Origin: Escherichia coli
GTDB taxonomy: Bacteria > Pseudomonadota > Gammaproteobacteria > Enterobacterales > Enterobacteriaceae
DNA: 64,000 bases
Reading direction: 5' to 3' (one strand)
Assembly: GCF_024700885.2 (NCBI RefSeq)
Contig: NZ_CP117016.1
Shown: positions 1 to 41,952 of the stretch, piece after piece
Layout: every line of letters begins with the position of its first letter
Numbering within the stretch: the first letter of the stretch is position 1
Notes under the pieces: model-generated
Database searches by the model: none
Told to the model about the DNA's origin: nothing
What the model saw: the letters and a program-made list of their open reading frames with translations, nothing else
Made by a program: the position numbers and the translations under genes

Positions 1-37
1 ATAATTAACACCGCAAAAAGTGCCAAAAATCGCAAAA

Positions 38-104
38 TGACTACACCAGTGACTACACCGTTCGGTGCACTGTATGAAACAACGTGGAACAAATAGACAC
101 AAGA
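38..104. repeat. Left-end repeat block: tandem gtgactacacc x2 followed by 10-bp phased AACAA repeats; near-identical block at 15068..15144
   Basis: tgactacaccagtgactacaccg at 38..60 is identical to 15068..15090; AACAA at 78, 88, 98. Confidence 0.6.
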
Positions 105-322
105 AATATACAGGCGGATCATCTTTCCAGGGGGAAGCACACCAATTCATGAGGGGCGTTAATGTCGATATGGGGATCCCCACCTACCGGAATTTTTTTC
201 CGGTTAAACGTTAATCAGGCTGGTGGGCTTTACCTGTTCGGTAGGTGTTATGATTATCGTAATACCTTTCCCCCAATGGGGTAAAAGCATCAACCGTAAC
301 GAAAGTCGTTATGGTTGCCACT

Positions 323-463
323 GATACCCCAAATTTGGGTATCACGAGTAAGCCCCAAAATCTGGGTGTTACTCTTACTACCCAAACTACGGGTAGTTTC
401 CGTAGTTTCATGGTCGAGTTGCAGATCTGCAACTCCCCCATTAACCACAGGCGAATTTCCGCC
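323..463. repeat. Cluster of inverted repeats (five or more hairpin-forming palindromes), function unknown
   Basis: gataccccaaatttgggtatc (323..343); ctacccaaactacgggtag (378..396); aaactacgg-gtagttt-ccgtagttt (384..408); perfect 20-bp palindrome gagttgcagatctgcaactc (415..434); ggcgaatttccgcc (450..463). Confidence 0.45.
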
Positions 464-689
464 TTCGGTCATTCCTTAATCATCTGCGTAATCATAATGA
501 TTATTCAGCAAGCGCAATTTTGCGCTTTGCTTAAAGTTCAGCGAGTTACCGCGCCGACTTCCTCAAATTGAGGTTTCCGAAAATATCAGCGGGTTAGCGA
601 TTAAGCTGACCATTAATTAAACTGCGAAAATGTCGTAGTTGTGAGGGGTGTAGCCAACCCATTTTTGGGCCGTCGGGAATATCAACCAG

Positions 690-971
690 TTACCGCCGCA
701 ACCGCTCCGGCTTCTTCCAGTGGTACGTTATTTTCTCCTTCTCCCGATACATCTCCACGCGGCGACGGTAGGCCAGCAACTCAAGAACTCTGGTTCGTAT
801 GTTGCGCATATCCACGCCATTAAGTTCTATACCATCACGGCGCATCACCTCAGCAACAACACGCGCATAGTTTTCGGCTGTCACGCTGTCCGGCTGCGTG
901 GCCTGTTCGTCAGCCTGCTGGCTGATTCCGGCAACGCGGCGGATTAATCCCGTTATTTCGGCTTCTGTCAT
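690..971 (-). CDS. Hypothetical protein, last gene of packaging operon
   Basis: 93-aa ORF starting 14 bp downstream of the terminase large subunit stop on the same strand. Confidence 0.5.
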   Translation of the reverse strand: MTEAEITGLIRRVAGISQQADEQATQPDSVTAENYARVVAEVMRRDGIELNGVDMRNIRTRVLELLAYRRRVEMYREKEKITYHWKKPERLRR

Positions 972-984
972 GCTGCTGACCTCA

Positions 985-2646
985 TTACACCCCGCTAAAT
1001 TCTTCCAGTTTCTGGCGGTGGCTGTCGCTTATATCAAAAGCAAAATCCTCATGCTCTGCCTGGAATGTACCAAACGCCATCAGCGCCGCCACGCTCGGGT
1101 CTATCTTGTTCGGTGATTTTTTCTTGTTCGGCTTGATATTGGCGTTCGCGTCACTCTGCATCACGACGTTACTCATCGACCAGGACAACACCGGATCGCC
1201 ACGATGCACAATCACCCTGCGGTTAACAAAAACTTCGAACGATTTCGCCGCCGGACTGAATCTGAGGTAGGTTTGCGGGAACGGCTCCACCTCAAAACCT
1301 GCCCCCTGTAATTGCGTTCTGAGATGCGTGGCGTTCCACGTATCAAAGCCCACCAGCCTGATATTAAATTTCTCCGCGTCCTGCATGATGTCATCTCTGA
1401 TCCGGTCGTAATCAATGCAGTCGCCAGGCGTTGTGCGTATCCAGCCTGCTTTAGCCCACTGACGATAGATGGCGCGGTTTTTATTGGCGGGGTTCTGTAG
1501 CTGAAATTCCGGCAGATAGTGACGGGAAACCAGCATAATGGTTTTACCGACCGGAAAGGCATAGCACACGCTGGAAATATCGCTGGTTGATGATAAGTCC
1601 AGCCCCGCGTAACACTCCTGGCCGTGTAAATCTTCCTCCGTGAACGTTCCGGCACACTCAGCCCATGCGCCGTTACCCATCCACGGGGTAGCCCCCTGGC
1701 ACCAGATATTAAATCGCTTTGTCATCATCTCCACCCACTGCGACGGAATACCCCGCGCTTTCTGGATGGTTGAGGCCAGTTTTTCACGATCGACGGAAAC
1801 ATCAATATTAGGGTTCGCCTTTATCCACATCGCCGGATCATCAACCTCGTTTTCGTCGTCCAGTTCGTAAATCAGTACAAAAATTGAATCGTTAACCTCT
1901 TCGCCGTCCAGGATCTGGCAGCAATAATCATAGTGCTGCTTACAGGCTGAAACGACGTTGCTGCCTGATGTGGTAATGGCAAATAACAGCCCTTCGGGAC
2001 GTGCGCCCATCCCCAGCTCAAGCGCGGAATAAACGCCGTTATCGGGGTGCAAGTGGTATTCGTCCACGATGGAAAGGCTGGGGTTTGTTCCCTCGATGGT
2101 TGCCGCTTTTGCTGCCAGCGGCTTTAACAGGCTGTTGCTTTTCGGGTGTATCACCTTATGCGCCTGAATATTCACCCGCCTGCGTAACGGTCGGGATAAA
2201 AGGCACATCTGACGCGCATCATCAAAGACGATCCGCGCCTGGTCACGGCTCACCGCTGCGGTGTAGATATCCTGCTGACCGTTCTCCATAATCAGAAACC
2301 AGTTAGCCAGAATCGCGGCGGTCGTGGATTTCGCATTTTTGCGCGGCACTTCGATAAAGGCGCTCGTGTATTTGCGCCGTCCGGTGGCCTTAACCTTAAA
2401 GCCGAGGATGCACGCAAAGGCGAACTGCTGCCACGGCTCCAGCTCAATGGGTCTGCCACGCATCGGTCCTTTTACGTGCGGGCACACCCTGGAAAAGGCA
2501 ATAAACCGCTCCACAACCTCACGATCGAACGTGTAAAGGGGGCTTTTAAGGTCCGAAAAGTACCGTTTAACGGCCTGTTTCAGCCGTTTACAGGCCGGAA
2601 TTTTGCCCGTTTTTACGTCTTCTGCGTACTTATTCCAGGCGGTCAA
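985..2646 (-). CDS. terL: Phage terminase large subunit
   Basis: 553-aa ORF with an N-terminal ATPase region and C-terminal nuclease-like region typical of Terminase_1 family; overlaps terS stop. Confidence 0.9.
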   Translation of the reverse strand: MTAWNKYAEDVKTGKIPACKRLKQAVKRYFSDLKSPLYTFDREVVERFIAFSRVCPHVKGPMRGRPIELEPWQQFAFACILGFKVKATGRRKYTSAFIEVPRKNAKSTTAAILANWFLIMENGQQDIYTAAVSRDQARIVFDDARQMCLLSRPLRRRVNIQAHKVIHPKSNSLLKPLAAKAATIEGTNPSLSIVDEYHLHPDNGVYSALELGMGARPEGLLFAITTSGSNVVSACKQHYDYCCQILDGEEVNDSIFVLIYELDDENEVDDPAMWIKANPNIDVSVDREKLASTIQKARGIPSQWVEMMTKRFNIWCQGATPWMGNGAWAECAGTFTEEDLHGQECYAGLDLSSTSDISSVCYAFPVGKTIMLVSRHYLPEFQLQNPANKNRAIYRQWAKAGWIRTTPGDCIDYDRIRDDIMQDAEKFNIRLVGFDTWNATHLRTQLQGAGFEVEPFPQTYLRFSPAAKSFEVFVNRRVIVHRGDPVLSWSMSNVVMQSDANANIKPNKKKSPNKIDPSVAALMAFGTFQAEHEDFAFDISDSHRQKLEEFSGV

Positions 2647-2986
2647 GCTCGTCCTCTTCTTCTGTTTCCGGTGGGTTTTTACGGCGGCTTATCGGGTCAA
2701 AACCGAGCAAGGAGGCCATTTTTATCATCACCCTTTCAGCGTCTGATTTCGCGCTTAATGCGGGGTTTCTGCTCTCGCCGCCCTGACTGTTAACAATGCT
2801 GAACCCGCGCGCCGCAAGGTCTGCGACGGCTTTCCGGTAAATGGAGTAGTTGACACAATACAGTTCCAGATTGCTCCAGTCGGCGGGGGTCAGGTCTCCC
2901 CGTTCCGCAAGCTGCCGCGATTTTTCCCGCCACTGCTTCACGGCGATGTCATCCAGGTAGGCGGGGGCTTTCGGTGGTCTTGCCAT
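2630..2986 (-). CDS. terS: Phage terminase small subunit (P27-like)
   Basis: 118-aa ORF immediately upstream of and overlapping terL; resembles P27-family small terminases with an acidic C-terminus. Confidence 0.7.
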   Translation of the reverse strand: MARPPKAPAYLDDIAVKQWREKSRQLAERGDLTPADWSNLELYCVNYSIYRKAVADLAARGFSIVNSQGGESRNPALSAKSDAERVMIKMASLLGFDPISRRKNPPETEEEDELDRLE

Positions 2987-3274
2987 GCTTATTTTTCGTC
3001 AGATTATTTTTCAAAAAATTCCCGTGCATAAAAATTTGAGGAGGCGTTCGGTGCCCGGCGGGGTCGGGTTTGTCCTGAAAACGCCCCCCACCCCGTCATA
3101 CAGCCTCATCAGCGATTGCGGAAACATTCCATAACCTCGCGGTCACGGTCGGTTAATCGCTTCGCTGTGATGCGTTCTGCGCGTCCTGACGCTTTATCTT
3201 TATGCCCTGTTTCCTGTGTCTTCCATGCGTCACGCTGCCTTATAAGTCCACGGATAAGGCGGTTTTGTTCCCGC
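2987..3274. other. Candidate cos/packaging site region between HNH gene and terS
   Basis: 288-bp non-coding gap in an HNH-cos-terS-terL arrangement (as in HK97-like cos phages); GC-rich segment cggtgcccggcggggtcggg...ccccccaccccgtc. Confidence 0.3.
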
Positions 3275-3715
3275 TCATTCATCAGCGTCATACATCCAGT
3301 TATTGCGGTTAGCGGCCCGTTCTTCCTCTTCACGAAATCCACCTGCGGCACGCTTGCTTTTTGTTGCCGGATCAAGCCATTTCGTTTTCTGGTTATGACA
3401 CGCCTGGCACAATGGTTGATGGTTCCATTCGGGCCAGAAGAGAACATCATCACCGCCATTAATCGGGATAATGTGATCCACCACCACGGCGGGCGTATAT
3501 ATCCCCTTCTCAAGGCATCGCACGCATAACGGGTTTTTACTCAGATACATGGCGCGGTATTTGTCCCACTGTCTGGAATATCCACGCGCGCGGCGGTGTC
3601 CTCGTCTGGCATCCTCTGCACGCCATGCCGCCCGCCTGTGCTCCTCACACTTGCCGGATTTAACGCGCCTGTTACAGCCTGGTTCTGTGCATCGTCTTAA
3701 TGGTTGCCACGGCAT
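3275..3715 (-). CDS. HNH endonuclease (terminase-associated)
   Basis: 146-aa ORF with Cys pairs and the DHIIP...N..LC..CH..K HNH motif, positioned upstream of terS. Confidence 0.85.
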   Translation of the reverse strand: MPWQPLRRCTEPGCNRRVKSGKCEEHRRAAWRAEDARRGHRRARGYSRQWDKYRAMYLSKNPLCVRCLEKGIYTPAVVVDHIIPINGGDDVLFWPEWNHQPLCQACHNQKTKWLDPATKSKRAAGGFREEEERAANRNNWMYDADE

Positions 3716-4011
3716 CAGTACACCCCCACATCACGGTAAGCCGTCCAGAGTGCGCCTATCGTCATGGGTACGCGTGTTTTTGCGTTATCCGCGACAATCT
3801 GGCGATTTTCATACAGGTGAGCGATAAACATCATGCAGCCAATCTTTATGGCTGGCGTGAACTCCAGCCCGTCATCAAAGCGCCTGCCTATGTGTATCTG
3901 GCACGCCTCAAGCGATGCGGCAATGTATCCGCTGATTAACTGGTCTTCATCGTCGCCATCGATGCGGCAATGGAGTTTCACTTCTTCCAGGGTGATAAGT
4001 TCTTCTGTCAT
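3715..4011 (-). CDS. Head-tail connector protein (gp6-like)
   Basis: 98-aa ORF, MTEELITLEEVK... resembles phage gp6-like head-tail connector family; translationally coupled to neighbours. Confidence 0.65.
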   Translation of the reverse strand: MTEELITLEEVKLHCRIDGDDEDQLISGYIAASLEACQIHIGRRFDDGLEFTPAIKIGCMMFIAHLYENRQIVADNAKTRVPMTIGALWTAYRDVGVY

Positions 4012-4346
4012 TTTTCCGCGCCCTCACGACAAAGAATTTCAAGGCGTGTCCTGGCGGCATCCGGCAGCGGCTGCCCGATGATATTCAGTACACGCCCCGC
4101 CAGCGGCCCCGTACTGACCTTTATCCGGCTGGTGGCGTTGATGTCCTTCCGGTACCGTATCCAGATCCTTACGGTACCAATCGCCAGCTCTGCGCCCGAT
4201 GAAATGGCCTCCTTGCTGCTGACCATGTTCACGCTTGCCCAGAGTGTGTGACCGTCCTCCCACGTTTCGAGTATTTCGCCGGTTATATCCCTGGTCTGTT
4301 TCAGGGTCTGAATCGTTATCCTGTCACGCAGTCGCCCTATGTTCAT
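4008..4346 (-). CDS. Head-tail adaptor / head closure protein
   Basis: ORF 4008..4388; probable start MNIGRLRDRITIQ at 4346, directly after portal stop, typical N-terminus of head-tail joining proteins. Confidence 0.65.
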   Translation of the reverse strand: MNIGRLRDRITIQTLKQTRDITGEILETWEDGHTLWASVNMVSSKEAISSGAELAIGTVRIWIRYRKDINATSRIKVSTGPLAGRVLNIIGQPLPDAARTRLEILCREGAEK

Positions 4347-5554
4347 TCCGGTTTTTCTCCCTCGCTGATTTTTACTTCCTGTTTCCATGCCTGGCTGAAC
4401 TCATCACCACCATCACGCGGTGACAGACCTTCACGTTCGCGGGCTTCGTTCGGACACATAACGCCGGATTTGATGCCGCGCTCATAGGTGGCAAAGCGTT
4501 CGCCAGGTGTGGCCCGTAACAGGTCCGCGCTGTCAAACTCCACCTGATACCGGATACCAGGTACAGGCGAGGCCACCAGCAGGGCGTTTTTTATCTGCTG
4601 CTCAAAGTTCGCCAGCCACGGGCGCATCGTCATGGTGAGAAATGCGCGGCTTGCCTCGCTGAAATTGCTGTAGGTGCTGTTGCTGTATTCCTGCAAAAAA
4701 ATCGGCGAGACGTTGAACATTCGGGCGATGTCTTCAATGGTGAAGCGACGGGAGGCCAGCCATTCAGCATCCTGATTACTCATGCCCAGCTGCTGATAGC
4801 TCATACCCCCTTCAAGGATGGGCGTTTTTCCGGCGTTTCTGGCCCCTTTGTAGCGTTCCAGTGCGGCTAATGCCTGTTTGCCCTTCACGCCGTCCAGCCA
4901 TTCGCCTGACGTGATAACCCCTGCCGCCATCATGCCATCACGCATCACGCTCGCGCCGTGGCGTTGTTGGGCCAGCCCAAGCCCCAGCGATTCGCGGCAG
5001 ATGGTTACAGGTGAGCACCCCATAAAGCCGTCATCCGTGGAGTAACGAAGGTGAAGTACTTCCCACGGTAAATAGTTGCGGGTGTTTCCGGTGTAGGCGT
5101 CAGTGATGCAGTAGCGCCAGTTGTGTTCGCCTGTCTGCTCCACGTTCACCGACTGCGGCGGGTAAGGATGTAAAGCCGCCGGAAAACCATCACGCCCCCA
5201 CTGAATCACCGCATAAGCATTACCGTTTAACAGGCAGTGGCGGATCATCATTCGCTTAAACTGGTAGGGGGTTTGCCATGCGTTCGGGCGCTCGTTGAGG
5301 ATGTGATCGACCGGATGAGAATCAAGCCACTCGCGGGCCTCCTTCCCCTTCTCATTGCGTACCAGGTACAGGTAACACGGCATGGTAGCCACCGCCTCAG
5401 AGATGACCGTCACGGCGTTCATGACGGCGGGCAGTGATTCCGCTGTCCCCGATGATACGTACTCACCCGCCCCCGTGTTCGATGTGCCAGCCAGCGCCAT
5501 AAATTCATCCAGCGTCATGCTGCGCTGCTCTTTTTTTCTTCTGAAAGGCCACAT
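4343..5554 (-). CDS. Portal protein (HK97 family)
   Basis: 403-aa ORF sitting between the prohead protease and adaptor genes, resembling HK97-family portal proteins. Confidence 0.85.
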   Translation of the reverse strand: MWPFRRKKEQRSMTLDEFMALAGTSNTGAGEYVSSGTAESLPAVMNAVTVISEAVATMPCYLYLVRNEKGKEAREWLDSHPVDHILNERPNAWQTPYQFKRMMIRHCLLNGNAYAVIQWGRDGFPAALHPYPPQSVNVEQTGEHNWRYCITDAYTGNTRNYLPWEVLHLRYSTDDGFMGCSPVTICRESLGLGLAQQRHGASVMRDGMMAAGVITSGEWLDGVKGKQALAALERYKGARNAGKTPILEGGMSYQQLGMSNQDAEWLASRRFTIEDIARMFNVSPIFLQEYSNSTYSNFSEASRAFLTMTMRPWLANFEQQIKNALLVASPVPGIRYQVEFDSADLLRATPGERFATYERGIKSGVMCPNEAREREGLSPRDGGDEFSQAWKQEVKISEGEKPE

Positions 5555-5555
5555 A

Positions 5556-6128
5556 TCACACCCCCGCTAAATCCACCCACCAGCGGCGATTATCCGCACG
5601 CGGCATTTTTTCGGGGTGCTGCTCATACAGGGAACGGCGGGCCAGCTCCACGCCGGAATCGGGGTAAGCCGGTACCGATGTAACGGTAATTTCGTACAGT
5701 TCCGCCACCAGCACGGTGCGCACGCATGGATCTGTTGTGGTATCCCATACATCCTTACGGGAGCGAAAGCCAAAGCTCATCCCCGAGATGTCCCCACGCT
5801 TAACCAGTTCGATAACGTCGCGCCCTGTACTGGTATCCGGTGGGGTCAGTTCAAAGCGTAACCCTGTTTCGTCCTCTTCCAGTTTCAGCGTGCCGGAACG
5901 GGTGCGCCCCAGTAACATGCTGTGGTCATGCTCATACAGGCCGCGAACGTCATTACCCGCCGCAAGCCACTCAGTAAACGCCCCCCGCTGGAATTTTTCG
6001 TAAAACTCCCCCCATAGCAGTTCTGAAAGCTTATCCCAGCGAACAACGTAGCCCGTCAGCGTACCGGCTCCGCTGGTAGTGATTTCCGATGACCGGATTT
6101 CCATACTCTTCATAATTTTTTCACCCAT
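5556..6128 (-). CDS. Prohead maturation protease (HK97 family)
   Basis: 190-aa ORF immediately downstream of the capsid gene, resembling HK97 prohead protease. Confidence 0.85.
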   Translation of the reverse strand: MGEKIMKSMEIRSSEITTSGAGTLTGYVVRWDKLSELLWGEFYEKFQRGAFTEWLAAGNDVRGLYEHDHSMLLGRTRSGTLKLEEDETGLRFELTPPDTSTGRDVIELVKRGDISGMSFGFRSRKDVWDTTTDPCVRTVLVAELYEITVTSVPAYPDSGVELARRSLYEQHPEKMPRADNRRWWVDLAGV

Positions 6129-6167
6129 AAAACACTAAAGGGGCTTTTAAGCCCCTTCTGTATGCTG

Positions 6168-7325
6168 TTAATCGTCGTCCTGTGGCAGTTCCAGAATCTT
6201 GATCGCGTTCGAATCCACCACGCCACCGCCTAAATATTTCTGCGTGAAAATTTTGATGAAGCCCGGCTCTGTGAGGTTGTCCGGTCTGGTGCGAACACCT
6301 GTTTCGTGATCAACAATGTAGTAACCGCGTTTGAAGTCACCCAGGGCAATAACGTTATCCGGCATAAACTCCAGATATTCGACCGGAAGGCCCAGTAACG
6401 TATCAGGATCACCCGCCTGTAAACGGTCGCGCCAGATGTAATCACCGTTCGCGTTCTTCACCTTCTGAAGTTTTGCCGCCGTCGTGGAGTTAACCACCCA
6501 GACCGCGTTTTTGCGGTATTTTTTACGTAATGCAAATTTCAGGTCGATCAGCGGGTCCGCAGATGTCCACGCCAGAGATTCGGAAGGTTTAATTACCTGC
6601 AACGTACCAAAATCACGCTCTTTGTCGTTCTTCTCTGCACGGGGTACGGATAAAAAGCCTTTTGCTTTTTTGTCACCGTCGCCCACAACCAGATCGCTTT
6701 CTTCGGTTTCCGTGAAGTTGTCGCCAATCTCGCCCGTCAGCCATGAAAGGATGTCCACATCGGAAAAATCCACGATTTCCTGCGTGGTGCGCGGGTACGC
6801 ATAGACCGGATACAGCTTAATGCTCACCTCGTTAATCTGCGGGGTGCTGGTCTGTTCGCGTGCCTTACCCTCTTCACCGTGGTTAACGGTCGCACCGCCA
6901 GCGGAAACAAGCTGCTTAAACTCGTTGCTGCTGATTTTCTTCACGGTACAGATGCGGCGCATGGTGGATTCATCCGTCAGCATTCGCATGATTTCGGTGT
7001 TCAGTTCGGGGATAACGGTATAACCACCATCAGCGGGAACGCCTGTACTTAATGCGCGGGTTTCACCTGTCAGAATGTAGTGACGTAGTTCGGCTGGGTC
7101 AGTGGTCTGACTGCTTTTACCTGGCTTGCTGCGCTCTTCGTCTGCAATGGCTTCAAGGCGGGAAATGTCTTTATCGAGGGATTCAGCTTTAGCGCGTAAT
7201 TCGTCAAATTTTGCGCCCTCAGCATCGTTAAGACTGCGGTTTTCTTTTTCCGCGTTCTCCAGCATGTCGCGCATCTGATTTTTAATGGCGGTTTTCTGCT
7301 GGCGTAATTCGATTATTCTCGGCAT
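6168..7325 (-). CDS. Major capsid protein (HK97 fold) with N-terminal delta/scaffold domain
   Basis: 385-aa ORF with a coiled-coil-rich N-terminus followed by HK97-like capsid region. Confidence 0.85.
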   Translation of the reverse strand: MPRIIELRQQKTAIKNQMRDMLENAEKENRSLNDAEGAKFDELRAKAESLDKDISRLEAIADEERSKPGKSSQTTDPAELRHYILTGETRALSTGVPADGGYTVIPELNTEIMRMLTDESTMRRICTVKKISSNEFKQLVSAGGATVNHGEEGKAREQTSTPQINEVSIKLYPVYAYPRTTQEIVDFSDVDILSWLTGEIGDNFTETEESDLVVGDGDKKAKGFLSVPRAEKNDKERDFGTLQVIKPSESLAWTSADPLIDLKFALRKKYRKNAVWVVNSTTAAKLQKVKNANGDYIWRDRLQAGDPDTLLGLPVEYLEFMPDNVIALGDFKRGYYIVDHETGVRTRPDNLTEPGFIKIFTQKYLGGGVVDSNAIKILELPQDDD

Positions 7326-7584
7326 AAAAAAAGTCCTGGGGTTAAGTAAGGAACTCCAGGACGCGGCAAAAACTCAACCGTTTTTCATAAGGAAATCAGC
7401 AATCGCACCGATCGTTTTCCCGCCTGGTAATGAATATTGGCGAGAACATTAACAGGCGGAAAAGTGGCCCCAGCGTCCTGGCACCACGGGCGAGAATAAT
7501 CATGATTCAGTTCGGGTAAAATATGCCGATCCGCTCAGTGAACAACGTGGAACAACCACGAACAAATAATTTACAAAACATGAC
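7326..7584 (-). promoter_or_regulatory. Upstream region of capsid/packaging operon containing 10-bp phased AACAA repeats (7541..7565)
   Basis: 259-bp non-coding gap between an upstream terminator and the capsid start; gtgaacaacgtggaacaaccacgaacaa. Confidence 0.45.
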
Positions 7585-7605
7585 AAAAAGCCGGATTGCT
7601 CCGGC
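7585..7605 (-). terminator. Rho-independent terminator ending the replication/early operon
   Basis: Minus-strand hairpin gccggagcaatccggc followed by TTTTT, immediately after the stop of the 93-aa ORF. Confidence 0.6.
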
Positions 7606-7612
7606 TGTGTGA

Positions 7613-7894
7613 TTATCTGTCCTGGTAATTTCGCCATATTTCATTACCAGCACCATCCATACCCATTTCGGCATAAGTGCGATCGACCGCCTTTTTCAGG
7701 TCTCCGTAGTTATCCGGCGGCTCCGGTGGCCTCTGTGCCTTCCTGGAACATTCCAGCCGTCGCATCGTGATGTGATGCCGTTCCTTGTCTGTCTCCACCA
7801 GTTGCATGACTTCACCCCATCGCGCCGACGCTCTCCGGTAAAAGCCTTTCGCCTCCAGTTCTTCCGCTATGCGGTCATGTACCATCGTCCCCAC
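7613..7894 (-). CDS. Hypothetical protein
   Basis: 93-aa ORF in operon with the SSB gene. Confidence 0.5.
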   Translation of the reverse strand: MGTMVHDRIAEELEAKGFYRRASARWGEVMQLVETDKERHHITMRRLECSRKAQRPPEPPDNYGDLKKAVDRTYAEMGMDGAGNEIWRNYQDR

Positions 7895-7897
7895 CCC

Positions 7898-8308
7898 TCA
7901 GAACGGAATATCATCACCGTAAGGGTCATCGCCTCCCGCTGGTGGCTGATTACCCTGTGTGCCTGTGGTCTTGCGTCGGCTCCCACCAGGACGTGCCGCA
8001 CGGGCACTGATTACGCTGTCTGCAATAACCTGATAACCCTGCCGCGTTTCCCCGTTCTGTCCGGTCCACTGGCTGACCTGCATCGTGCCGGATACGCTGG
8101 CAACGTCGCCTTTTTGATGTTTAGCCAGGAAGTCGGCCTGCTTACCAAATGCGATGACCGATAGCCATAACGTCGCCTGTCCATCCTGTGCCTGGCTGCA
8201 TGGCAGCGATACCGCCATACGCGCCAGCGTCATCGGTGTACCCTTGCTGGTCTGTTTTACCTGCGGGTCGTCCACCAGCCGCCCGTAAGCTGCTATCTGT
8301 GCTGTCAT
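7898..8308 (-). CDS. ssb: Single-stranded DNA-binding protein (SSB-like)
   Basis: 136-aa ORF with OB-fold-like core, Gly/Pro-rich linker and C-terminal DDIPF tail as in bacterial SSB. Confidence 0.75.
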   Translation of the reverse strand: MTAQIAAYGRLVDDPQVKQTSKGTPMTLARMAVSLPCSQAQDGQATLWLSVIAFGKQADFLAKHQKGDVASVSGTMQVSQWTGQNGETRQGYQVIADSVISARAARPGGSRRKTTGTQGNQPPAGGDDPYGDDIPF

Positions 8309-8583
8309 GATTCCACCTCTCCGGTTTTAACGTTGATGGTTGTTACCTGTTCCGCTTCGGCAATCTCCCGCTCTGTCAGCGTGGCAAAATTTGCCGCCGT
8401 CGTGGTCATGAATGCGCTTATCAGTTTGGGATGTGCTTTCGCGTATCCTTCCCCCGCGTGGCGGTCTATCGTTCTGATTGCCACCTTTAAAGCGTGCTCT
8501 GTCATGTCTAACGCGCGATATTTCGGTTCTGTTCTGTCTCTGCGTTTTTTGAGTGATTTATTAAATTTCCCTGAAGTGTGCAT
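8305..8583 (-). CDS. Hypothetical protein
   Basis: 92-aa ORF between the iteron origin and the SSB gene, overlapping the SSB start. Confidence 0.5.
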   Translation of the reverse strand: MHTSGKFNKSLKKRRDRTEPKYRALDMTEHALKVAIRTIDRHAGEGYAKAHPKLISAFMTTTAANFATLTEREIAEAEQVTTINVKTGEVES

Positions 8584-8629
8584 ATTTATTTTTACCCCCT
8601 CGTTTAAAAAGTTTTGAGTTGTGCCTCCC

Positions 8630-8860
8630 CTTGTCTACCTTATCTACCTTAGTGGCCCTCATACCAGTAATGGCGCGGCTTTCAGCGGGGTAGAGTGCTT
8701 TTATCCACTATCTACCCCGTGTCTACCTCCCTGTCTGATTCAGGTAAAATCAGGTAGAGAGGGTAGATAGTGGGTAGACAGTAAAAAAAGGTTATCTACC
8801 TAACTTAATGCACTGAATTAAATGTATTTTTCTTTACTCAGGTAGACAGGGTAGACAGCA
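8630..8860. repeat. Iteron array, putative island replication origin
   Basis: Ten or more copies of T(A/G)TCTACC in both orientations (e.g. tgtctacct, tatctacct, caggtagagagggtagatagtgggtagacag, caggtagacagggtagacag) immediately 3' of the primase gene. Confidence 0.7.
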
Positions 8861-8871
8861 ATTACAAAAAA

Positions 8872-10626
8872 TTATAAAAACGCGTCGCACTCGTCTGTTG
8901 TTATTGCGTTAGTCTGCGTTACTCCCTTAACTTTCCGCGTAATATATTCATGTCCGTAAACTTTCGCGGCTGGCTTCATAGCCTTGCCAAAGTCATTTAC
9001 GTTTAGCGGTTTGCTCCTGCCTGCGTACGCCATAAACGCCAGATAGACGCGGTAAAGGCTGTTTCTGGTCGTGTACTTCACTGAATCGCCACCGCCGCCC
9101 ATCATCAGGCCGCGTGCTTCCTCCAGAAAATTCAGGAACTGGCAAAACTCAATAACCGGATCCGTCTGTTGCTTTATTGCCAGAGCTTCATCACCGTCAC
9201 GCTGTTCCAGTAGTAAAGCCCGTGCCTTCTCAGGGTCGGTAAAGTTCGCCAGCAATCGGCGGATAATGACAGGGATTTCAGCCGCGATCTTTTCCGGTAG
9301 CTCCCTGTCTTTTTCGGCCTCACTGACGATATTGTCGAAACGGAAAATCACGCGACGACGTGCCACACCTCCGGCCCGTTCGGTGAATATCATCGGGTTA
9401 TTGTTGGTCGCCAGCACCACCGCCCTGATTACCGCCGTGAAACGCTTTTCGTATTTCGGGTTAATTTCCACGGGGTCACCGCCCGTGATTTTCTTGATGC
9501 CCGTTCCTTCGCCTGTATATTTCGGCTGGTCAGCCAGGACGATAAGACGACTCCCGACAACCTGCGCACGTCCACCAGCATCATCAAGCGATGTCATTTC
9601 AGCGCTTACCGTGTTCTGTTTCCCTGCCAGAAGGCTGGCTATGTGTGTGAATGTACTTTTACCGCTCCCGCCGTCTCCGGTGGCCTCAATAAACATCTGC
9701 CAGTCGTACCGGTTCGCCATAATCATGTACAGCGCGGCACATATACGCATCATCTTGCGCGGGTCTTTTCCGGCTGCGTGCTCAAGCCATTTATGAAAGT
9801 TTGGCGCGTTATCGCGGATGTTCTCCCCTGGTGCTGGTGGCGTGTACTCAATGCCGTTGTGCGTGGTGATCCAGTTCTCCGGCGTGTGCGGGGAAAATTC
9901 CCCCGTTTTCAGGTCAAGCGCACCATTGGCGAACGGCAACAAATCGCCGGACGGCTCGCCCATTGGTTCGGCAATAACTTTTAACGCTTCCACGGCGTTA
10001 TTGATTACGCGCTTGCTGAAAGTGGCCCTGTGCTCTGAATAGATCGCCACCATTTCGCGGCTAAGTTCCATTGTGCTGACCGGACACCATACCCCGCCGC
10101 GCCATACGTGAACGATTTCACTTTCAGGATGTACGCAAACGCCATCAAAGCGATCGGCAAGCAGTTGCGCGCGCTCACTGTCCGCCATCTGCGAAAGTTG
10201 CGCCTTTTGCTTTACCGGAAGCTCAATGACCAGACCATCAGAAAGATTCTGGCGCTCACGGGCCAGATATTCGCGCCAGTTCTCCACCTTCTGACCGTGC
10301 ATACCATCAGGGTAAAAATTTGCATCCTGTACGCCTGCCGCCGCCAGCTTCTGACCAATCGCCTTTATCATTACTGGCGCAAGATATCCGGCCCTGAATA
10401 TGCGCACGGATTTTCTGCCTTCCGGCACAATTTGCAGCTTATCCAGTTCGGATAACTGCTGCTCCCCAAGCCACACAGGAGGCTCATTATCTCCGGCCAT
10501 ACGCGCGTCATGTTCCTGCCATTGTTTTGCGTGTGACCAGGCATCACTACCCGCAAAAATAATGACTTCTGTTTCTTTGTGTTTTATGCCGCGTGACTGC
10601 TGTTTTACGTTCGGTGCCAGTTTCAT
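8872..10626 (-). CDS. Replication initiator: phage/plasmid primase with D5/P4-type NTPase (helicase) domain
   Basis: 584-aa ORF with Walker A GDGGSGKST and downstream motifs typical of P4-family primase C-terminal domain; followed by iterons. Confidence 0.8.
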   Translation of the reverse strand: MKLAPNVKQQSRGIKHKETEVIIFAGSDAWSHAKQWQEHDARMAGDNEPPVWLGEQQLSELDKLQIVPEGRKSVRIFRAGYLAPVMIKAIGQKLAAAGVQDANFYPDGMHGQKVENWREYLARERQNLSDGLVIELPVKQKAQLSQMADSERAQLLADRFDGVCVHPESEIVHVWRGGVWCPVSTMELSREMVAIYSEHRATFSKRVINNAVEALKVIAEPMGEPSGDLLPFANGALDLKTGEFSPHTPENWITTHNGIEYTPPAPGENIRDNAPNFHKWLEHAAGKDPRKMMRICAALYMIMANRYDWQMFIEATGDGGSGKSTFTHIASLLAGKQNTVSAEMTSLDDAGGRAQVVGSRLIVLADQPKYTGEGTGIKKITGGDPVEINPKYEKRFTAVIRAVVLATNNNPMIFTERAGGVARRRVIFRFDNIVSEAEKDRELPEKIAAEIPVIIRRLLANFTDPEKARALLLEQRDGDEALAIKQQTDPVIEFCQFLNFLEEARGLMMGGGGDSVKYTTRNSLYRVYLAFMAYAGRSKPLNVNDFGKAMKPAAKVYGHEYITRKVKGVTQTNAITTDECDAFL

Positions 10627-10922
10627 TTTTTACCCCTGAATCCGTTAATCATGGTTTTCAGCTTCTGGATGTTTGCCCGTGCCCTGGCGTTGCTGGTGGA
10701 CACGTTATGCGGCGCGGTCTGTACCAGAGAAAAATCACGCCGGAACTGATAAACAGGCATCACGCAATCATATTCGTAACCTTCACGGCGGTAGGTTACG
10801 CGCCGTTCTTCCACGCCCTTAATCATTACCGTGCCGCCGTACTGGTCGCGGTAAATATCGCCGCGCGTAAATTTAGGGTGAGTGTTGCCACTGGCAGTTA
10901 AGCCAGAATATTTAAGTTTCAT
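10623..10922 (-). CDS. Hypothetical small protein (accessory operon gene 7)
   Basis: 99-aa ORF whose stop overlaps the primase start (ATGA). Confidence 0.5.
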   Translation of the reverse strand: MKLKYSGLTASGNTHPKFTRGDIYRDQYGGTVMIKGVEERRVTYRREGYEYDCVMPVYQFRRDFSLVQTAPHNVSTSNARARANIQKLKTMINGFRGKK

Positions 10923-10927
10923 TATTT

Positions 10928-11161
10928 TTATTCTCCGGTGTGCTGTTCTTTATATCTGTCGTGCAATAGATCTATTTCTTGCAGTTCCATTATTACAGGC
11001 TCAAGAAGCGTTATTAATGCCGTGGCAATTCTTGATTTTTGTTTGTCGCGTTCATTGTCGCCAAGTGTTTCAAGCCATATGCGCAATATTTCCAGCATGT
11101 TTTCACTGTGAGAAAGTGCAAGAAATGCGCGGTCTATTGTTTCGTGGTAAATATCACGCAT
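10928..11161 (-). CDS. Hypothetical small protein (accessory operon gene 6)
   Basis: 77-aa ORF, same strand, tightly packed. Confidence 0.45.
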   Translation of the reverse strand: MRDIYHETIDRAFLALSHSENMLEILRIWLETLGDNERDKQKSRIATALITLLEPVIMELQEIDLLHDRYKEQHTGE

Positions 11162-11387
11162 GGCTTACATCCTCAGGAAATTTTCTTCTATAACGCGCCT
11201 CTGCCACATATTCCGCATAATCGGCGGCGATATTCAGTACATCAAGCCCCGTTGATTTATATTCTCTCGTGGAAAGTAAGAAAAAAGCCGCTCTAATAAG
11301 TTCTGGCATTGACGAAAGCGCATCAGCCGCATCATCAGGAACGCCGGAAAATTCCTGTTTCAGGGAATTAAAACGATCATCACGCAT
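11154..11387 (-). CDS. Hypothetical small protein (accessory operon gene 5)
   Basis: 77-aa acidic ORF overlapping its neighbours by 8 bp. Confidence 0.45.
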   Translation of the reverse strand: MRDDRFNSLKQEFSGVPDDAADALSSMPELIRAAFFLLSTREYKSTGLDVLNIAADYAEYVAEARYRRKFPEDVSHA

Positions 11388-11763
11388 GTTTACCCCCCTG
11401 AATGACCTGATAACCGCAACTGGTCAGCAACTCGATAAATTCCGGCAGTGTGCCGAAACAGCAATCATCACGCAGCCGTTCACAGGATACCTCGACGCCG
11501 TTTTCGTAGTGACTCACCATACATCCGGTAAAATGCAGATCATCATCGTGATGGCTCGTTGACGGCTTAATCAGTCGCGCACGTTCCGCCAGTTCCAGCA
11601 ATGCTTCAACGCTTCCGGCAATTGCACCATCCGGCAGGTGATAATTACGCACTATGCGCCCGTTCTCCACATTGACCAGCAACTGCCCGGTAAATTTCTC
11701 ATCAAACTGAATGCTGTTAAGGTCAGAAATTGACAGATTATGCATGGTGCACCTCCTGCACAT
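11380..11763 (-). CDS. Hypothetical protein (accessory operon gene 4)
   Basis: 127-aa ORF; start may be the internal Met at 11745 (MHNLSI...). Confidence 0.5.
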   Translation of the reverse strand: MCRRCTMHNLSISDLNSIQFDEKFTGQLLVNVENGRIVRNYHLPDGAIAGSVEALLELAERARLIKPSTSHHDDDLHFTGCMVSHYENGVEVSCERLRDDCCFGTLPEFIELLTSCGYQVIQGGKHA

Positions 11764-12016
11764 CAGCCATGATAATTTTTCCGGCCTTATCCAGTGCCTG
11801 ATCGGCTTTTAGCTGCACAAATGCTAAATAATGGAAGATGCATTCTGATTCTCTGGCTGCGTGTTTATGCGCCCTGTCAGCAATAACAGAAATATCAATA
11901 AGCGCGTGCATCAGCGTAGTGAGCGCGGCGGCGGCTGCGTCCGGTGTGGTTTTATTGCACATGTACCCCTCCGCATTTTTTTTCGTTAGAAATAAGCGTT
12001 CTTCTTTCCTGTTCAT
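11738..12016 (-). CDS. Hypothetical small protein (accessory operon gene 3)
   Basis: 92-aa ORF; start may be the internal Met at 11962, which would remove most of the overlap with the upstream gene. Confidence 0.45.
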   Translation of the reverse strand: MNRKEERLFLTKKNAEGYMCNKTTPDAAAAALTTLMHALIDISVIADRAHKHAARESECIFHYLAFVQLKADQALDKAGKIIMADVQEVHHA

Positions 12017-12182
12017 CGCTCAGGAATACGCAGACCTCACCGCTAAGGCGTTTAAGTAAGCCGATGATTGCCCCTGATTCGCTGTCGGTCATCATGCCAG
12101 GGTAATCCTCTGCCAGTGCGCAAATAACTTCGATTTGGTGGGCGCGTTCTGCTGCCTGTTGTAGTGTGATTTCCTGGCTCAT
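11952..12182 (-). CDS. Hypothetical small protein (accessory operon gene 2)
   Basis: 76-aa ORF, start overlaps the stop of the upstream gene. Confidence 0.45.
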   Translation of the reverse strand: MSQEITLQQAAERAHQIEVICALAEDYPGMMTDSESGAIIGLLKRLSGEVCVFLSDEQERRTLISNEKKCGGVHVQ

Positions 12183-12379
12183 AAGCCTACCCCCTGACGA
12201 ATACGGGCAGCAAATACCATCACGCAGCCAGCCGGAGATTGCTGGCGTGCTTCCTGTTCGCTGGTGGCCTCAATGGTAATCACGCGCGGTTGTGCCGTGC
12301 TCAGGGCGATAAAACGCCAGATGTATTTATTCAGGTTGTGCGAGTCCCGCCCTTGCGGGTGTGTGGTATGATTTCTCAT
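12179..12379 (-). CDS. Hypothetical small protein, first gene of leftward operon (Cro-like position)
   Basis: 66-aa ORF starting MRNHTT at 12379; the 340-aa ORF in the track is read-through across the regulatory region. Confidence 0.4.
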   Translation of the reverse strand: MRNHTTHPQGRDSHNLNKYIWRFIALSTAQPRVITIEATSEQEARQQSPAGCVMVFAARIRQGVGL

Positions 12380-12476
12380 AGCTACCTCGATACTTTCGCT
12401 ATCGTTGGTGGTTAGAAGCCCGGTTAGTGTTAGCGCACTGCCGGGTTTCGTCGTTTCTGCACCTTGCGCCAACAAG

Positions 12477-12528
12477 GTGTTGAACACCAATTTAAACCCA
12501 GGTGTTAAACACGTCAAGTGTTGAACAC
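12477..12528. promoter_or_regulatory. Three palindromic operators GTGTTnAACAC between divergent promoters
   Basis: gtgttgaacac (12477..12487), gtgttaaacac (12502..12512), gtgttgaacac (12518..12528) in the gap between divergent gene sets. Confidence 0.6.
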
Positions 12529-12578
12529 TTATTTTTTTTCCTGCATACTGCATTTGTTTTTTATGAGGGGTACACCAC

Positions 12579-12758
12579 ATGGCGACAAAAGCGGTAAACG
12601 CAAAATCACAAACCGTTGCGGCAAGGGTTCCGCATGAAGTTATGAACAATGTTGAGGCGGTAAAAATGCCTGGCGAAAGTACGGGGCAATTTGTTACTGC
12701 GGCATTAAAACGAGAAGTTGAATATCGCCAGCGGCGCAAGGCCAAAGAACCAGAGTAA
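12579..12758 (+). CDS. Putative ribbon-helix-helix transcriptional regulator
   Basis: 59-aa ORF (below the track cutoff) with a Shine-Dalgarno-like gagggg upstream; beta-strand/helix/helix pattern typical of Arc/MetJ/CopG family; adjacent to operators. Confidence 0.5.
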   Translation: MATKAVNAKSQTVAARVPHEVMNNVEAVKMPGESTGQFVTAALKREVEYRQRRKAKEPE

Positions 12759-12800
12759 TCACCATCAGCGCCGTGGTGTAAGGTATTACGGCGCATTGCT

Positions 12801-12989
12801 ATGCAGGACAACACAATGACCGATAAAGAATTGACCAAAACATTATCACCGGCACGGAAAAGACGGCGCAGAAAGATAGAGCATGAATCAGAAAGATTCG
12901 CGCCATGTGCTTTTGCCCTTGAGCAATTCCTTAAAGAGTACAGGGAAAAGCGCTCATTGCAGGTATGGCAACGAACTGAACCAGACTGA
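12801..12989 (+). CDS. Hypothetical small basic protein
   Basis: 62-aa ORF downstream of the RHH gene on the same strand, followed by a terminator. Confidence 0.4.
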   Translation: MQDNTMTDKELTKTLSPARKRRRRKIEHESERFAPCAFALEQFLKEYREKRSLQVWQRTEPD

Positions 12990-13083
12990 TTGCATTGCCC
13001 ACCAGCCTGATAACGGCTATCATCCCCGTGCTTATGTTTGGGATCACACACACAAACGGCGCAGCGGGTTATCTGTTCAGAAA

Positions 13084-13113
13084 GGCGGCTCCATTTCGGG
13101 GCCGCTTTTTTTA
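13084..13113 (+). terminator. Rho-independent terminator of rightward regulatory transcript
   Basis: Hairpin gcggctcc-attt-cggggccgc followed by TTTTTTT. Confidence 0.55.
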
Positions 13114-13258
13114 TACCTGAAAAACCCCAATTTTGTTGTTTTTCAGTTTCACCAGGGCGAACGAATCCCCGCCCACGTTCTGGCGTATATTCAATCTTCA
13201 TGGTTATAGCTCTGTGTTCAGATGATTGATGTGTGGCGGCTGCGTGCCGCCAGCGTGA

Positions 13259-13528
13259 TTAATGAACTGCCTTGCAGCTATCCTTCCAGGCCAGAACCTC
13301 GGATAAAGACCAGCCAACGGAACGACCGCCAAGTTTACGACGTGATGGGAATTGTCCGGCCTTTTCCAGGCGGTAGCGACACGTACGGCTAAGGCCGGTT
13401 AGTTTTTCGCATTCTTTTTCACGTATAAACCGATCAGTGCTTAACACTATTGCCCCCCTTTCGTTTCTTAAAGAGTCATCAGGTGTCTTATTGTGTCGTA
13501 TTGTTCCCGCTAGAGTGATGAATGGCAA
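13259..13528 (-). CDS. alpA: AlpA-family phage transcriptional regulator / excisionase-like
   Basis: 89-aa ORF; C-terminal region ...LTGLSRTCRYRLEKAGQFPSRRKLGGRSVGWSLSEVLAW matches AlpA-family pattern; adjacent to int; true start may be downstream. Confidence 0.8.
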   Translation of the reverse strand: MPFITLAGTIRHNKTPDDSLRNERGAIVLSTDRFIREKECEKLTGLSRTCRYRLEKAGQFPSRRKLGGRSVGWSLSEVLAWKDSCKAVH

Positions 13529-13720
13529 ATACTGAGGATGTATGATTTACAGAAAATGAAACAGTAAGAATAAAATTTTTTAAATTCATGTTAATACAAA
13601 GGCATAAAATATTGTTCCATGCCTTTTTTCTCGCTCTTTAAAGAGTGATTCGCTAGTGTACAAAAAACCAGTAACGCATTAAAAATCAGCTACTTATAAA
13701 TCCGTACGCTTTTTCGCCTC

Positions 13721-13765
13721 TTGTTCGTAGTTGTTCCACATTGTTGCTCATTGTTGCACGTTGTA
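13721..13765. promoter_or_regulatory. Five 10-bp phased TTGTT repeats (reverse-complement of AACAA array) between int and alpA
   Basis: ttgttcgtag ttgttccaca ttgttgctca ttgttgcacg ttgta at exact 10-bp spacing. Confidence 0.5.
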
Positions 13766-13812
13766 TCTGTTCGCATATCCAGTATGCGCATACTGAAAAA
13801 ACACGAAAAAAA

Positions 13813-15042
13813 TTATTTTCTTCTGGCTACGGGTAGCGTGGTTACGTTTTCATGTGTTCCCGCCAGTATCCCTAACCGCTCCGTCCACATATCCAGCGCA
13901 TTGCGTTTCGCATCCAGATAACGGGAATGATTATAAACTCGCTGCATTCCTGGCATCTGGTGGCCTGTAAGCTGCTCCACGACATGCGGATCAACGCCTA
14001 AATCGTTCAGCATGGTTGTAAAGGTGCGCCGGATGTCATGCAGTGACCAGTGAGGGTGATTAAGCCTCCTGTACGCTAATCTTCCATACTGCGATACGCT
14101 GGCCTCCTGTTTCACTTCCCCCAGCAATAAGCCCGTGTGCCTGTTCTGCTCCACCAGCTGCGTGACGAACGGCAGGATCGCTTCCGGTATGGGCCGGAAT
14201 ATTGCGACCTTCGTTTTGCTGTGCTCCTTCGGAACGGTCCATAGCATTTCCGTAAAATCCCACTCCCCGATCTCCGATAACCTCAGTTCTACCGTTCTGG
14301 CTCCGAAGACAATCAGGAGGCGGATTAACGCGACGTAGTAAGGGGAGAATATTTTTTTGTCCAGTGCCTGCAATAATTCGCCAAGTTCTTTGTTACTTAA
14401 GACACGTTCGCTTATATCCGGTTTTTTCCCAACGTCCGCAACGTTCAGATCGTCCAGAACGTTGCTGATTGCATAGCGCCGCCTACGGCAGAACTTAAGC
14501 GCCTGTTTGCACGCCTGTAGCACGAATCCGGCAGTAACAGGCGTTCGCTTTGCCACCTGGTCAAAACAGGCCAGCCAGTGCCGTAGCTCGCATTTATCCA
14601 GCGGCATAGCACCAATCTGCTGTATTACGTGATTATTAAGTCGCCTTTTCAGGGCGATATAATCCACGCGGTTTTCCTTTACGTAATACTCAAGCCAGTA
14701 GGTGAGCGCATCGCCAACCGTTACGGGCTTTAACGCTTCCTGTACGGTGTAATTCATCTCATGACGTGGATTTTTCCCCTCAGCCAGCCATGTGCGACAC
14801 TGTGCGGCTTTTTCCCTGGCTGCTTTCAGGCTCAGATCAGGATAACTTCCCAGCTTAATGCGTTCGGGTCGTGTCTCCCTTCCCGTTCCGGCCCTGTATG
14901 TGAAATACCAGGTCAATTTCCCTGATGTTAAATATTTCACGCTCAGGTTTCCGCCATCACTATAAAACGTGTTTTTCTCCGCTGGCTTACCATGAAGTTT
15001 CCTTAGCAAGGTATCGCTCAGTTTGTTCATTGCTCTGCTCAC
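13813..15042 (-). CDS. int: Tyrosine-type site-specific integrase (P4-like)
   Basis: 409-aa ORF with catalytic-domain motifs (HDIRRTF, GHQ, VYNHSRY) at the island end next to the chromosomal junction. Confidence 0.92.
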   Translation of the reverse strand: MSRAMNKLSDTLLRKLHGKPAEKNTFYSDGGNLSVKYLTSGKLTWYFTYRAGTGRETRPERIKLGSYPDLSLKAAREKAAQCRTWLAEGKNPRHEMNYTVQEALKPVTVGDALTYWLEYYVKENRVDYIALKRRLNNHVIQQIGAMPLDKCELRHWLACFDQVAKRTPVTAGFVLQACKQALKFCRRRRYAISNVLDDLNVADVGKKPDISERVLSNKELGELLQALDKKIFSPYYVALIRLLIVFGARTVELRLSEIGEWDFTEMLWTVPKEHSKTKVAIFRPIPEAILPFVTQLVEQNRHTGLLLGEVKQEASVSQYGRLAYRRLNHPHWSLHDIRRTFTTMLNDLGVDPHVVEQLTGHQMPGMQRVYNHSRYLDAKRNALDMWTERLGILAGTHENVTTLPVARRK

Positions 15043-15067
15043 GTTTTACCCCCTCTTTACGAAAAAG

Positions 15068-15144
15068 TGACTACACCAGTGACTACACCGATCGTTGCAC
15101 AAAGGGCTACAACGTGAAACAAGCTGGAACAAGGAAAATCACAA
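15068..15144. repeat. Right-end repeat block, copy of 38..104
   Basis: tgactacaccagtgactacaccg (15068..15090) then phased AACAA at 15118, 15128, 15140. Confidence 0.6.
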
Positions 15145-15215
15145 ATCTATTGATAATCAAAAACATAATGCACAGCCTGAAACATTATGAAACAGCAAAA
15201 AACACTAAATGATAA

Positions 15216-39156: not shown

Positions 39157-41952
<2,796 letters not shown>

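Follow-up and report, generated by a model that had tools for sequence, protein, structure and literature searches.

A probable cos site upstream of terS in a capsid-forming phage-inducible chromosomal island of Escherichia coli

Where is the DNA of a capsid-forming phage-inducible chromosomal island (cf-PICI) cut for packaging? The question arises in a 64-kb stretch of Escherichia coli DNA (the window), in which a cf-PICI (positions 1-15218) interrupts tqsA and has its genes on the minus strand. Within this island, the interval 2987-3274 extends exactly from the stop of the HNH endonuclease gene (hnh) to the start of the gene for the small terminase subunit (terS), and the original prediction, made from gene order alone, placed a cohesive-end (cos) site there. 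The assembly ends of related elements, a published report of cohesive ends, sequence conservation and a parallel with phage HK97 now support that placement, and the cos site of this cf-PICI is very likely the spacer 2987-3108, which immediately precedes terS on the minus strand. The arrangement is the canonical one for a known type of element, refined here to the nucleotide. What is new is that most of the apparent gap is a gene and that the cut and its flanking signals can be predicted at nucleotide level; understanding of how such systems work is unchanged.

Linear DNA ends in related cf-PICIs

In three independent assemblies from public data, linear cf-PICI DNA terminates in the hnh-terS spacer. 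IMG/VR contig 3300022664_000095, a unit-length contig of 15,518 bp from a related cf-PICI, is stored as two pieces, L220 (1-14263) and L101 (14264-15518). These pieces join seamlessly inside the head-closure gene, and the real contig ends are therefore CTCAAATTTTTACGCACGG... and ...CCGCAAGGCAC. The left end reads CTCAAATTTTTACGCACGGTG..., beginning with CTCAAATTTTT and followed by the terS ATG at position 61, and the right end reads ...GGTTTTCAGGACAAAACCCAAGCCGCAAGGCAC, finishing in ...GGCAC. In the nearest integrated relatives with the same flanks, the corresponding sequence is ...GCAAGGCAC-CACCCGCCCC-CTCAAATTTTT..., its last part being CTCAAATTTTTACG... when written out further; exactly 10 nt present in these relatives are missing from the junction of the contig's ends. 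End repair removes 3' overhangs, which are then absent from both ends, and fills in 5' overhangs, which are thereby duplicated, the type of logic on which PhageTerm relies. The 10-nt absence would thus fit a 10-nt 3' overhang removed at end repair.

The other two assemblies end in the same spacer at less exact positions. Record LR881103 (vB_KppS-Ant), of 16,548 bp, is a cf-PICI obtained from a phage preparation on Klebsiella pneumoniae DSM 30104 by Nextera XT sequencing and SPAdes assembly (PMC8006926), and is >99% identical to a region of the DSM 30104 genome according to its authors (PMC8006926). It starts with ACGAAAAGG..., 22 nt ahead of terS, and ends with ...GGTTTTCAGGAC. An integrated copy with an identical TerS is found in GCA_000742135.1, which is presumably the DSM 30104 type strain, and carries GAACACGAGGGCGCCAGGCAC-CACCCGCCCC-CTCAAATTTTTTCGCACGGTGATTTTTTTGAAAATAAA between Ant's two end points. 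Relative to this copy, 21 + 10 + 38 nt are lost in Ant, centred on the same 10-mer, and such erosion fits tagmentation libraries, which cover the ends of molecules poorly. An exact look-up of the Ant TerS protein in public assemblies returned integrated copies only, which lie in Klebsiella genomes. The third case is PQ569648.1 ('Klebsiella phage P12620-1', 106.5 kb), a chimeric record whose last ~15.9 kb (about 90.64-106.5 kb) are a cf-PICI, running from the second base of the terS start codon (ATG+1) to inside the last codons of a small open reading frame (ORF) that precedes the spacer.

The window's own variant is also present in an isolate-genome contig that ends in ...CCGGGCACC (...GGGCACC), 1 nt beyond the predicted nick; the opposite end of this contig is a provirus boundary set by gene-based trimming, and the contig was treated as weak support. 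Every fetched locus was checked by script for ends near the motifs. The apparent ends of L176 and L245 proved to be storage-chunk boundaries and were discarded, as was the integrase end of L201, which reflects gene-based provirus trimming and is not a terminus. The assembly evidence agrees with the report that packaged DNA of the Klebsiella cf-PICI KpCIDSM30104 forms concatemers through cohesive ends (He et al., 10.1101/2025.02.11.637232).

The Ant record, LR881103.1, is titled 'Escherichia phage vB_KppS-Ant' and is described in its paper as a filamentous single-stranded DNA prophage; it is the capsid-forming PICI of K. pneumoniae DSM 30104, KpCIDSM30104. A 765-aa gene located after its terL is annotated as a tape measure protein, with no Pfam match on record.

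Layout, conservation and alternative readings of the spacer

The base composition of the spacer changes abruptly ahead of terS. The GC-rich tract that had been remarked on in the gap is real: positions 3041-3097 are 71.9% GC, compared with 51% for the island, a value reached by only 0.15% of the island's 57-nt segments. The adjoining DNA, 2987-3040, has 27.8% GC and falls within the lowest 0.75%. Across the 64 kb of the window, a 26-nt core motif has a single occurrence, against 0 chance matches expected.

Read on the minus strand, towards terS, the region delimited by the ORF map and annotation and taken as the cos region (2987-3108) contains an ordered set of motifs. The upstream G-run box, GGGGTGGGGGGCGTTTTCAGGAC (3072-3094; -44 to -22 from the predicted lower-strand nick), is kept in E. 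coli and Klebsiella cf-PICIs and may position the large terminase subunit (TerL) and the HNH protein, or may act as a termination signal like lambda cosQ. A GC-rich spacer, AAACCCGACCCCGCCGGGCAC (3051-3071), differs between islands, as entropies and the table of variants indicate, and ends in a conserved ..CAC directly before the predicted nick. The predicted cleavage core, CGAACGCCTC (3041-3050), is cosN-like and would form a 10-nt 3' cohesive end, as suggested by the ends of contig 3300022664_000095 and the parallel with HK97. The next bases, CTCAAATTTTT (3030-3040; +1 to +11), would be the first of the packaged left end, as they are at the start of that contig. After an intervening AT, GCACGG (3027-3022), GA and ATTTTTT (3019-3013) make up a candidate TerS recognition element, or cosB-like box, at 3013-3027 (+14 to +28), proposed from its position and conservation. 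GAAAAATAA follows the T-tract, and the terS ATG is reached at 2986, +55 from the predicted cut. On this layout, the island would be cut at 3040/3041 and 3050/3051, with 3' polarity.

Conservation is stronger in the non-coding motifs and their spacing than in the coding DNA on either side. The E. coli and Klebsiella variants all align across the site without gaps, and the distance from ..AC to CTCAAATTTTT is 10 nt in 100 of 100 distinct integrated variants; an apparent spacing class of 12 is an artefact of the regular expression used, caused by GGACAC. Column entropies, computed on a 133-sequence alignment, part of which had been retrieved with the motifs themselves, are 0.04 for +1 to +11, 0.07 for the T-tract, 0.16 for GCACGG and 0.22 for the G-run box, rising to 0.39 for 3051-3055, 0.47 for the 10-mer and 0.97 for the spacer at -16 to -6 and likewise for 3056-3068. 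For hnh, terS and the small ORF, the values at third codon positions are 0.69-1.0. Less biased subsets consist of 73 distinct segments retrieved through the G-run alone and of elements retrieved through the TerS protein. The left-end motif CA[AGT]ATTTTT is found at fixed spacing in all 73 of these segments and the box with its T-tract in 71 of them, while the 10-mer takes 16 forms around C-R-N-M-Y-S-C-Y-Y-C. Where E. coli islands have diverged, BLAST detects no more than the spacer and the 3' end of the small ORF.

The layout extends to more distant elements. Pasteurella Pmp7/8, retrieved by TerS (66% identity), keep it as GGTGGGGGGGAATTTTGAAAAG...GAAC|CGCCCCCCCA|ATCAAATTTTTACGCAAGGCAATTTTTT, with GCAAGGCAATTTTTT at the offset of the +14 to +28 box. 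A looser version, GGGGGAGGGTGGGTTTTGAC...GAATGAC|CGCCCCCTAA|AGTACATTTTTACG, is seen in Acinetobacter phage AbIPP1 (38% TerS identity). The ends of the AbIPP1 record were considered as cos ends and rejected, the record having been rotated to start at the terS ATG. Some spacers (L123, L128 and L174) are mosaics of two E. coli cf-PICI types, one contributing the G-run side and the other the terS side, which points to a concentration of recombination breakpoints at cos or close to it.

These features can be combined into a plausible packaging pathway. After excision and replication of the island, its P27-family TerS would bind the A/T-rich side of the site, for which the GCACGG + T6 box at +14 to +28 is the candidate. 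TerL, assisted by the HNH protein, would then nick in stagger on either side of CGAACGCCTC (3041-3050), with the conserved G-run box (-44 to -22) as part of the signal, perhaps in nuclease positioning or termination. The product would be a unit-length linear DNA (~15.2 kb) with 10-nt 3' cohesive ends, packaged in the order terS-terL-accessory region-attachment site-int-...-capsid-...-hnh-small ORF. Because the cos sequences differ and TerS belongs to another family, the terminases of the island and its helper phage would each cut only their own DNA.

Several points weigh against this interpretation or parts of it. Just one assembly, contig 3300022664_000095, is flush with the predicted nicks, and its sample may or may not be a virome; overhang polarity and length are deduced from an assembly and not from reads; and no second flush-ended contig appeared in further IMG/VR pattern scans or in a metagenome scan. 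Evidence on the ends of unit-length packaged DNA comes from relatives and not from the window's island: the flush contig and the virion assemblies are Klebsiella-type elements, with about 70-72% nucleotide identity across hnh-terS and 83% TerS identity. A repeat could have broken the assembly of the isolate contig at GGGCACC. Some of the loci behind the conservation statistics were retrieved by motif, and only position and conservation identify the candidate TerS box at +14 to +28, the island's TerS being not detectably related to HK97 gp1. Given that the exact cut model draws on one flush contig and an analogy with HK97, a cos site in this spacer with a cut of different length, polarity or exact position, within about 3030-3070, is the alternative to be taken most seriously, improbable as it is. 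The isolate contig, which ends 1 nt further in, at GGGCACC, would be compatible with it, as would PMC9410871, in which both 10 and 12 nt are given for HK97 in different passages. A different cut is harder to reconcile with a missing segment of exactly 10 nt, a module of exactly 10 nt in every variant, and the 10-nt 3' overhang reported for HK97 (PMC11331095; figure legend of PMC9410871).

Explanations that place the cos site elsewhere, dispense with it or derive it from the helper are much less probable. One is that the spacer motifs serve not packaging but the expression of terS-terL, whether as an internal promoter, as a small RNA or as elements acting on translation, termination or antitermination, as might be thought of A/T-rich DNA, often regulatory ahead of genes, that lies inside a long operon before a terS without a strong Shine-Dalgarno sequence. 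No sigma-70-like promoter and no intrinsic terminator were found on the coding (minus) strand of the spacer, however, nor has the spacer an Rfam match, and regulation leaves unexplained the assembly ends, the fixed 10-nt module and the positional match to the HK97 cos. This account is quite unlikely, although a dual role in packaging and expression is possible. An inverted repeat of the G-run and a C-run was also considered as a hairpin signal and rejected, its 3' arm being unconserved and no pairing register being consistent across variants. A shade less probable again is packaging from another place, such as a hairpin cluster at 265-470, or by a headful (pac) mechanism without fixed ends, with the spacer merely intergenic. 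The cluster is exceptional in its predicted folding (z = -8.7 for the minus strand, -9.7 for the plus strand) and is widespread in E. coli genomes, and the end positions are known from relatives and not from this island. Yet the unit-length contig and the Ant virion assembly span the accessory region without interruption, their only break being in the hnh-terS spacer; since linear assemblies cross it unbroken, 265-470 is not a packaging end. Headful packaging is likewise at odds with the relatives, which show fixed unit-length ends and no terminal redundancy, with the cohesive ends of packaged KpCIDSM30104 DNA (10.1101/2025.02.11.637232), and with the HNH gene beside terS-terL, a hallmark of HK97-like cos systems (PMC9410871). 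Finally, the overall layout resembles the cos of HK97 and HK106, and the site might be conceived as a copy of the helper's cos, cut by the helper terminase, as in P4 and cos-type Staphylococcus aureus pathogenicity islands (SaPIs). This is the least credible of the alternatives: the predicted overhang is CGAACGCCTC and not CGCCGCCAAA, the candidate TerS site is GCACGGGAATTTTTT and not CTAACCCGATTTTTT, an HK97-type cos is not found in the 64-kb window even with 3 mismatches allowed, the TerS encoded by the island itself is of a different family, and helper terminase mutants leave island transfer unaffected (10.1101/2022.09.08.507074).

The 265-470 region consists of five consecutive hairpins. 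Of 5426 complete E. coli genomes, 1131 contain it, the core lying at about 318-440. It carries no annotation and matches nothing in Rfam; a structured RNA that has escaped annotation is one possibility, an array of protein-binding sites at the island's accessory end another.

The island and the small gene in the gap

Annotation of an identical locus by the Prokaryotic Genome Annotation Pipeline (PGAP) places ~15.2 kb between the split halves of tqsA, and the same 14.5 kb is found at 100% identity, splitting tqsA, in many complete E. coli genomes. The ORFs, their Pfam matches and the PGAP annotation agree with the features by which He et al. define cf-PICIs, which include the lack of tail and lysis genes and a size of 10-18 kb (10.1101/2025.02.11.637232). 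The 288-bp gap is 99.3% identical to its counterpart in islands of O157:H7 genomes, the serotype of EDL933, which is host to the prototype cf-PICI, EcCIEDL933 (preprint 10.1101/2022.09.08.507074).

The genes assigned from ORFs and Pfam matches, all on the minus strand, comprise the integrase (13813-15042), an AlpA-like regulator, a D5-type primase (8872-10626), and an operon of major capsid (6168-7325), prohead protease (5556-6128), portal (4343-5554), head-closure (4008-4388) and connector (3715-4011) genes, which is closed by hnh, the small ORF, terS and terL. The order HNH-gap-terS-terL, as originally read, is thus confirmed. The HNH endonuclease (3275-3715), presumably an accessory nuclease of the terminase, matches Pfam HNH (E = 1.8e-8) and phrog_144 (E = 8e-45). 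terS (2630-2986) encodes a P27-family small terminase (Pfam Terminase_4, E = 1.3e-23; TIGR01558; phrog_83), and terL (985-2646) a large terminase of HK97 type, in which Pfam recognises an ATPase and a nuclease domain (TerL_ATPase and TerL_nuclease). A conserved 93-aa ORF (690-971, minus strand), directly 3' of terL, matches phrog_1561, of unknown function, and no Pfam or NCBIfam family; it may or may not belong to the packaging module.

The boundaries of the 288-bp gap stand as originally drawn, but the gap is not empty, more than half of it being occupied by a small conserved ORF at 3109-3291 on the minus strand. PGAP annotates this ORF as a 60-aa coding sequence, WP_000174068.1, that overlaps the HNH stop. 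Its product matches phrog_3173, of unknown function (E = 7.5e-37), over residues 4-60; because the match begins at the fourth residue, the start is probably at 3282, giving 57 aa. Among the fetched loci there are 105 distinct protein variants, all with an invariant C-terminal R..R.RE...CFRNR, and the 50-aa and 57-60-aa forms are separated by in-frame indels that keep the reading frame in the alignment. Codon-position entropies over the last 14 codons are 0.26, 0.18 and 0.69, third positions being the most variable, as in coding DNA. The ORF is a real gene, and the non-coding DNA is therefore confined to 2987-3108 (122 bp). The conserved 3' end of the ORF was also considered as cos sequence acting at the DNA level, an idea discarded because its third codon positions vary as in ordinary coding DNA.

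The product of the small gene is a basic protein, modelled by AlphaFold2 as two helices (predicted local distance difference test score 75), with no family in Pfam or NCBIfam. In the phage database, phrog_3173 occurs only in cf-PICI-type records, and the gene is absent from the Pasteurella relatives. An annotated small ORF also lies between the HNH gene and cos in AbIPP1 (PQ201581.1, 33041-33259), and in HK97 a 67-codon open frame follows gp74 within 39413-39732, as judged by eye; both look unlike phrog_3173, again by eye only.

Loss of 'hypothetical gene 1792' severely reduces transfer of EcCIEDL933 (10.1101/2022.09.08.507074), and this gene might encode the phrog_3173 protein. A broader proposal, still speculative and rather doubtful as a whole, is that cos includes the G-run box and that the cf-PICI-restricted phrog_3173 protein is a fourth packaging factor, aiding the island terminase in recognising or cutting its own cos; separately, it takes the shared layout as a general signature. 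That layout (a G-run at about -44, ..AC|C-N9| and an A/T-rich TerS side) is observed in E. coli, Klebsiella, Pasteurella and Acinetobacter elements, and could allow nucleotide-level prediction of cos in phages and satellites with HNH-assisted terminases.

An exact packaging signal for a cf-PICI would open the way to minimal packageable cassettes, that is, cosmid-like vectors for tail-swappable cf-PICI capsids. A known cos would also permit in-vitro cleavage assays with the island's TerS, TerL and HNH proteins, and clean tests of why island and helper terminases ignore each other's DNA. For viromes, it supplies a sequence rule by which packaged cf-PICI genomes and their true ends can be recognised, and public 'phage' records can be flagged as actual cf-PICIs or cf-PICI chimeras.

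Comparison with HK97 and other cos systems

The closest counterpart of the island's site is the cos of HK97, which likewise lies between the HNH gene and terS, near terS, in line with the HK97-like arrangement expected at the outset. The HK97 record ends with ...GGGCAGGGGGGGGGATCAAATCTTCAAAACCTTTGCCCCAAATGACCGCCGCCAAA and starts with GTTTGAATTTAACGCTAACCCGATTTTTTT..., with terS at position 50; the predicted cut of the island lies 55 nt before the terS ATG, compared with 50 nt in HK97. The G-run spans -46 to -33 in HK97 and HK106 and -44 to -33 in the window, and is followed by a GC-rich 10-mer after ..AC, CGCCGCCAAA in HK97, where it forms the 10-nt 3' overhang, and CGAACGCCTC in the window. 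A GC box with a T-tract is found at +15 to +29 in HK97 and at +14 to +28 in the window. In HK97, this position is the TerS site, CTAACCCGATTTTTT, mapped by electrophoretic mobility shift assay and cryo-electron microscopy (PMC11331095), with T16, a C:G pair at 21 and an A:T tract at 24-29 as its noted elements (PMC9410871, PMC11331095), and with a numbering that matches the record. An ungapped alignment anchored on the two cuts gives 39 identities in 105 positions, against 26 +/- 4.4 for shuffled sequences (p about 0.004), and among offsets of +/-25 nt those within 2 nt of the cut anchor score best.

The proteins that would act at the site differ in their degree of relatedness. TerL is 27% identical to HK97 gp2 (E = 3e-47) and the HNH protein 39% identical to gp74 (E = 2e-19), both being homologous, whereas the island's TerS (P27/Terminase_4) has no BLASTP similarity to gp1. 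The cos sequences are only 37% identical in the anchored alignment, and the predicted overhang and candidate TerS box differ from those of HK97. The conserved TerL/HNH pair may recognise the upstream half with the cut, leaving the downstream half to the divergent TerS. A further difference lies between the HNH gene and the right end, where HK97 has 319 bp without an annotated feature and the island has its phrog_3173 gene.

More remotely, the tripartite logic of lambda cosQ-cosN-cosB, in which an upstream element and a downstream small-terminase site flank a nicking core, may be shared. Lambda differs in its 5' overhangs (cited in PMC9410871), in the lack of an HNH protein and in its unrelated terminase subunits, and no lambda-like sequence is present at the island site. 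Among satellites, cos-type SaPIs such as SaPIbov5 and the satellite P4 are also packaged from cos, and in the staphylococcal helpers, including the HNH-dependent phages phi12 and phiSLT, the terminase is HNH-assisted (per 10.1101/2022.09.08.507074). These satellites rely on the helper for the terminase and carry its cos, in contrast to the island, which has its own terminase and a different cos.

The elements most directly comparable to the island are EcCIEDL933 and KpCIDSM30104, which are of the same type and have the same gene order; the architecture of KpCIDSM30104 matches. The cos site is neither located nor sequenced in the preprint versions of the two studies (10.1101/2022.09.08.507074, 10.1101/2025.02.11.637232), and the journal versions may hold an earlier mapping. 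HK106 has been shown experimentally to be a helper phage of EcCIEDL933, and its cos region is identical to that of HK97. The original suggestion of an island-specific cos thus holds insofar as the site differs from the HK97-type cos of this helper, but not in the sense of a site confined to a single island, as it is common to the whole enterobacterial cf-PICI family. In EcCIEDL933, mutation of any named gene of the packaging module, including hnh, terS and terL, abolishes transfer of the island and not of the phage, and the phage packaging genes are needed for phage transfer and not for island transfer (10.1101/2022.09.08.507074). A distinct cos read by a distinct terminase would explain this separation of island and helper, and fits separate packaging specificities for the two.

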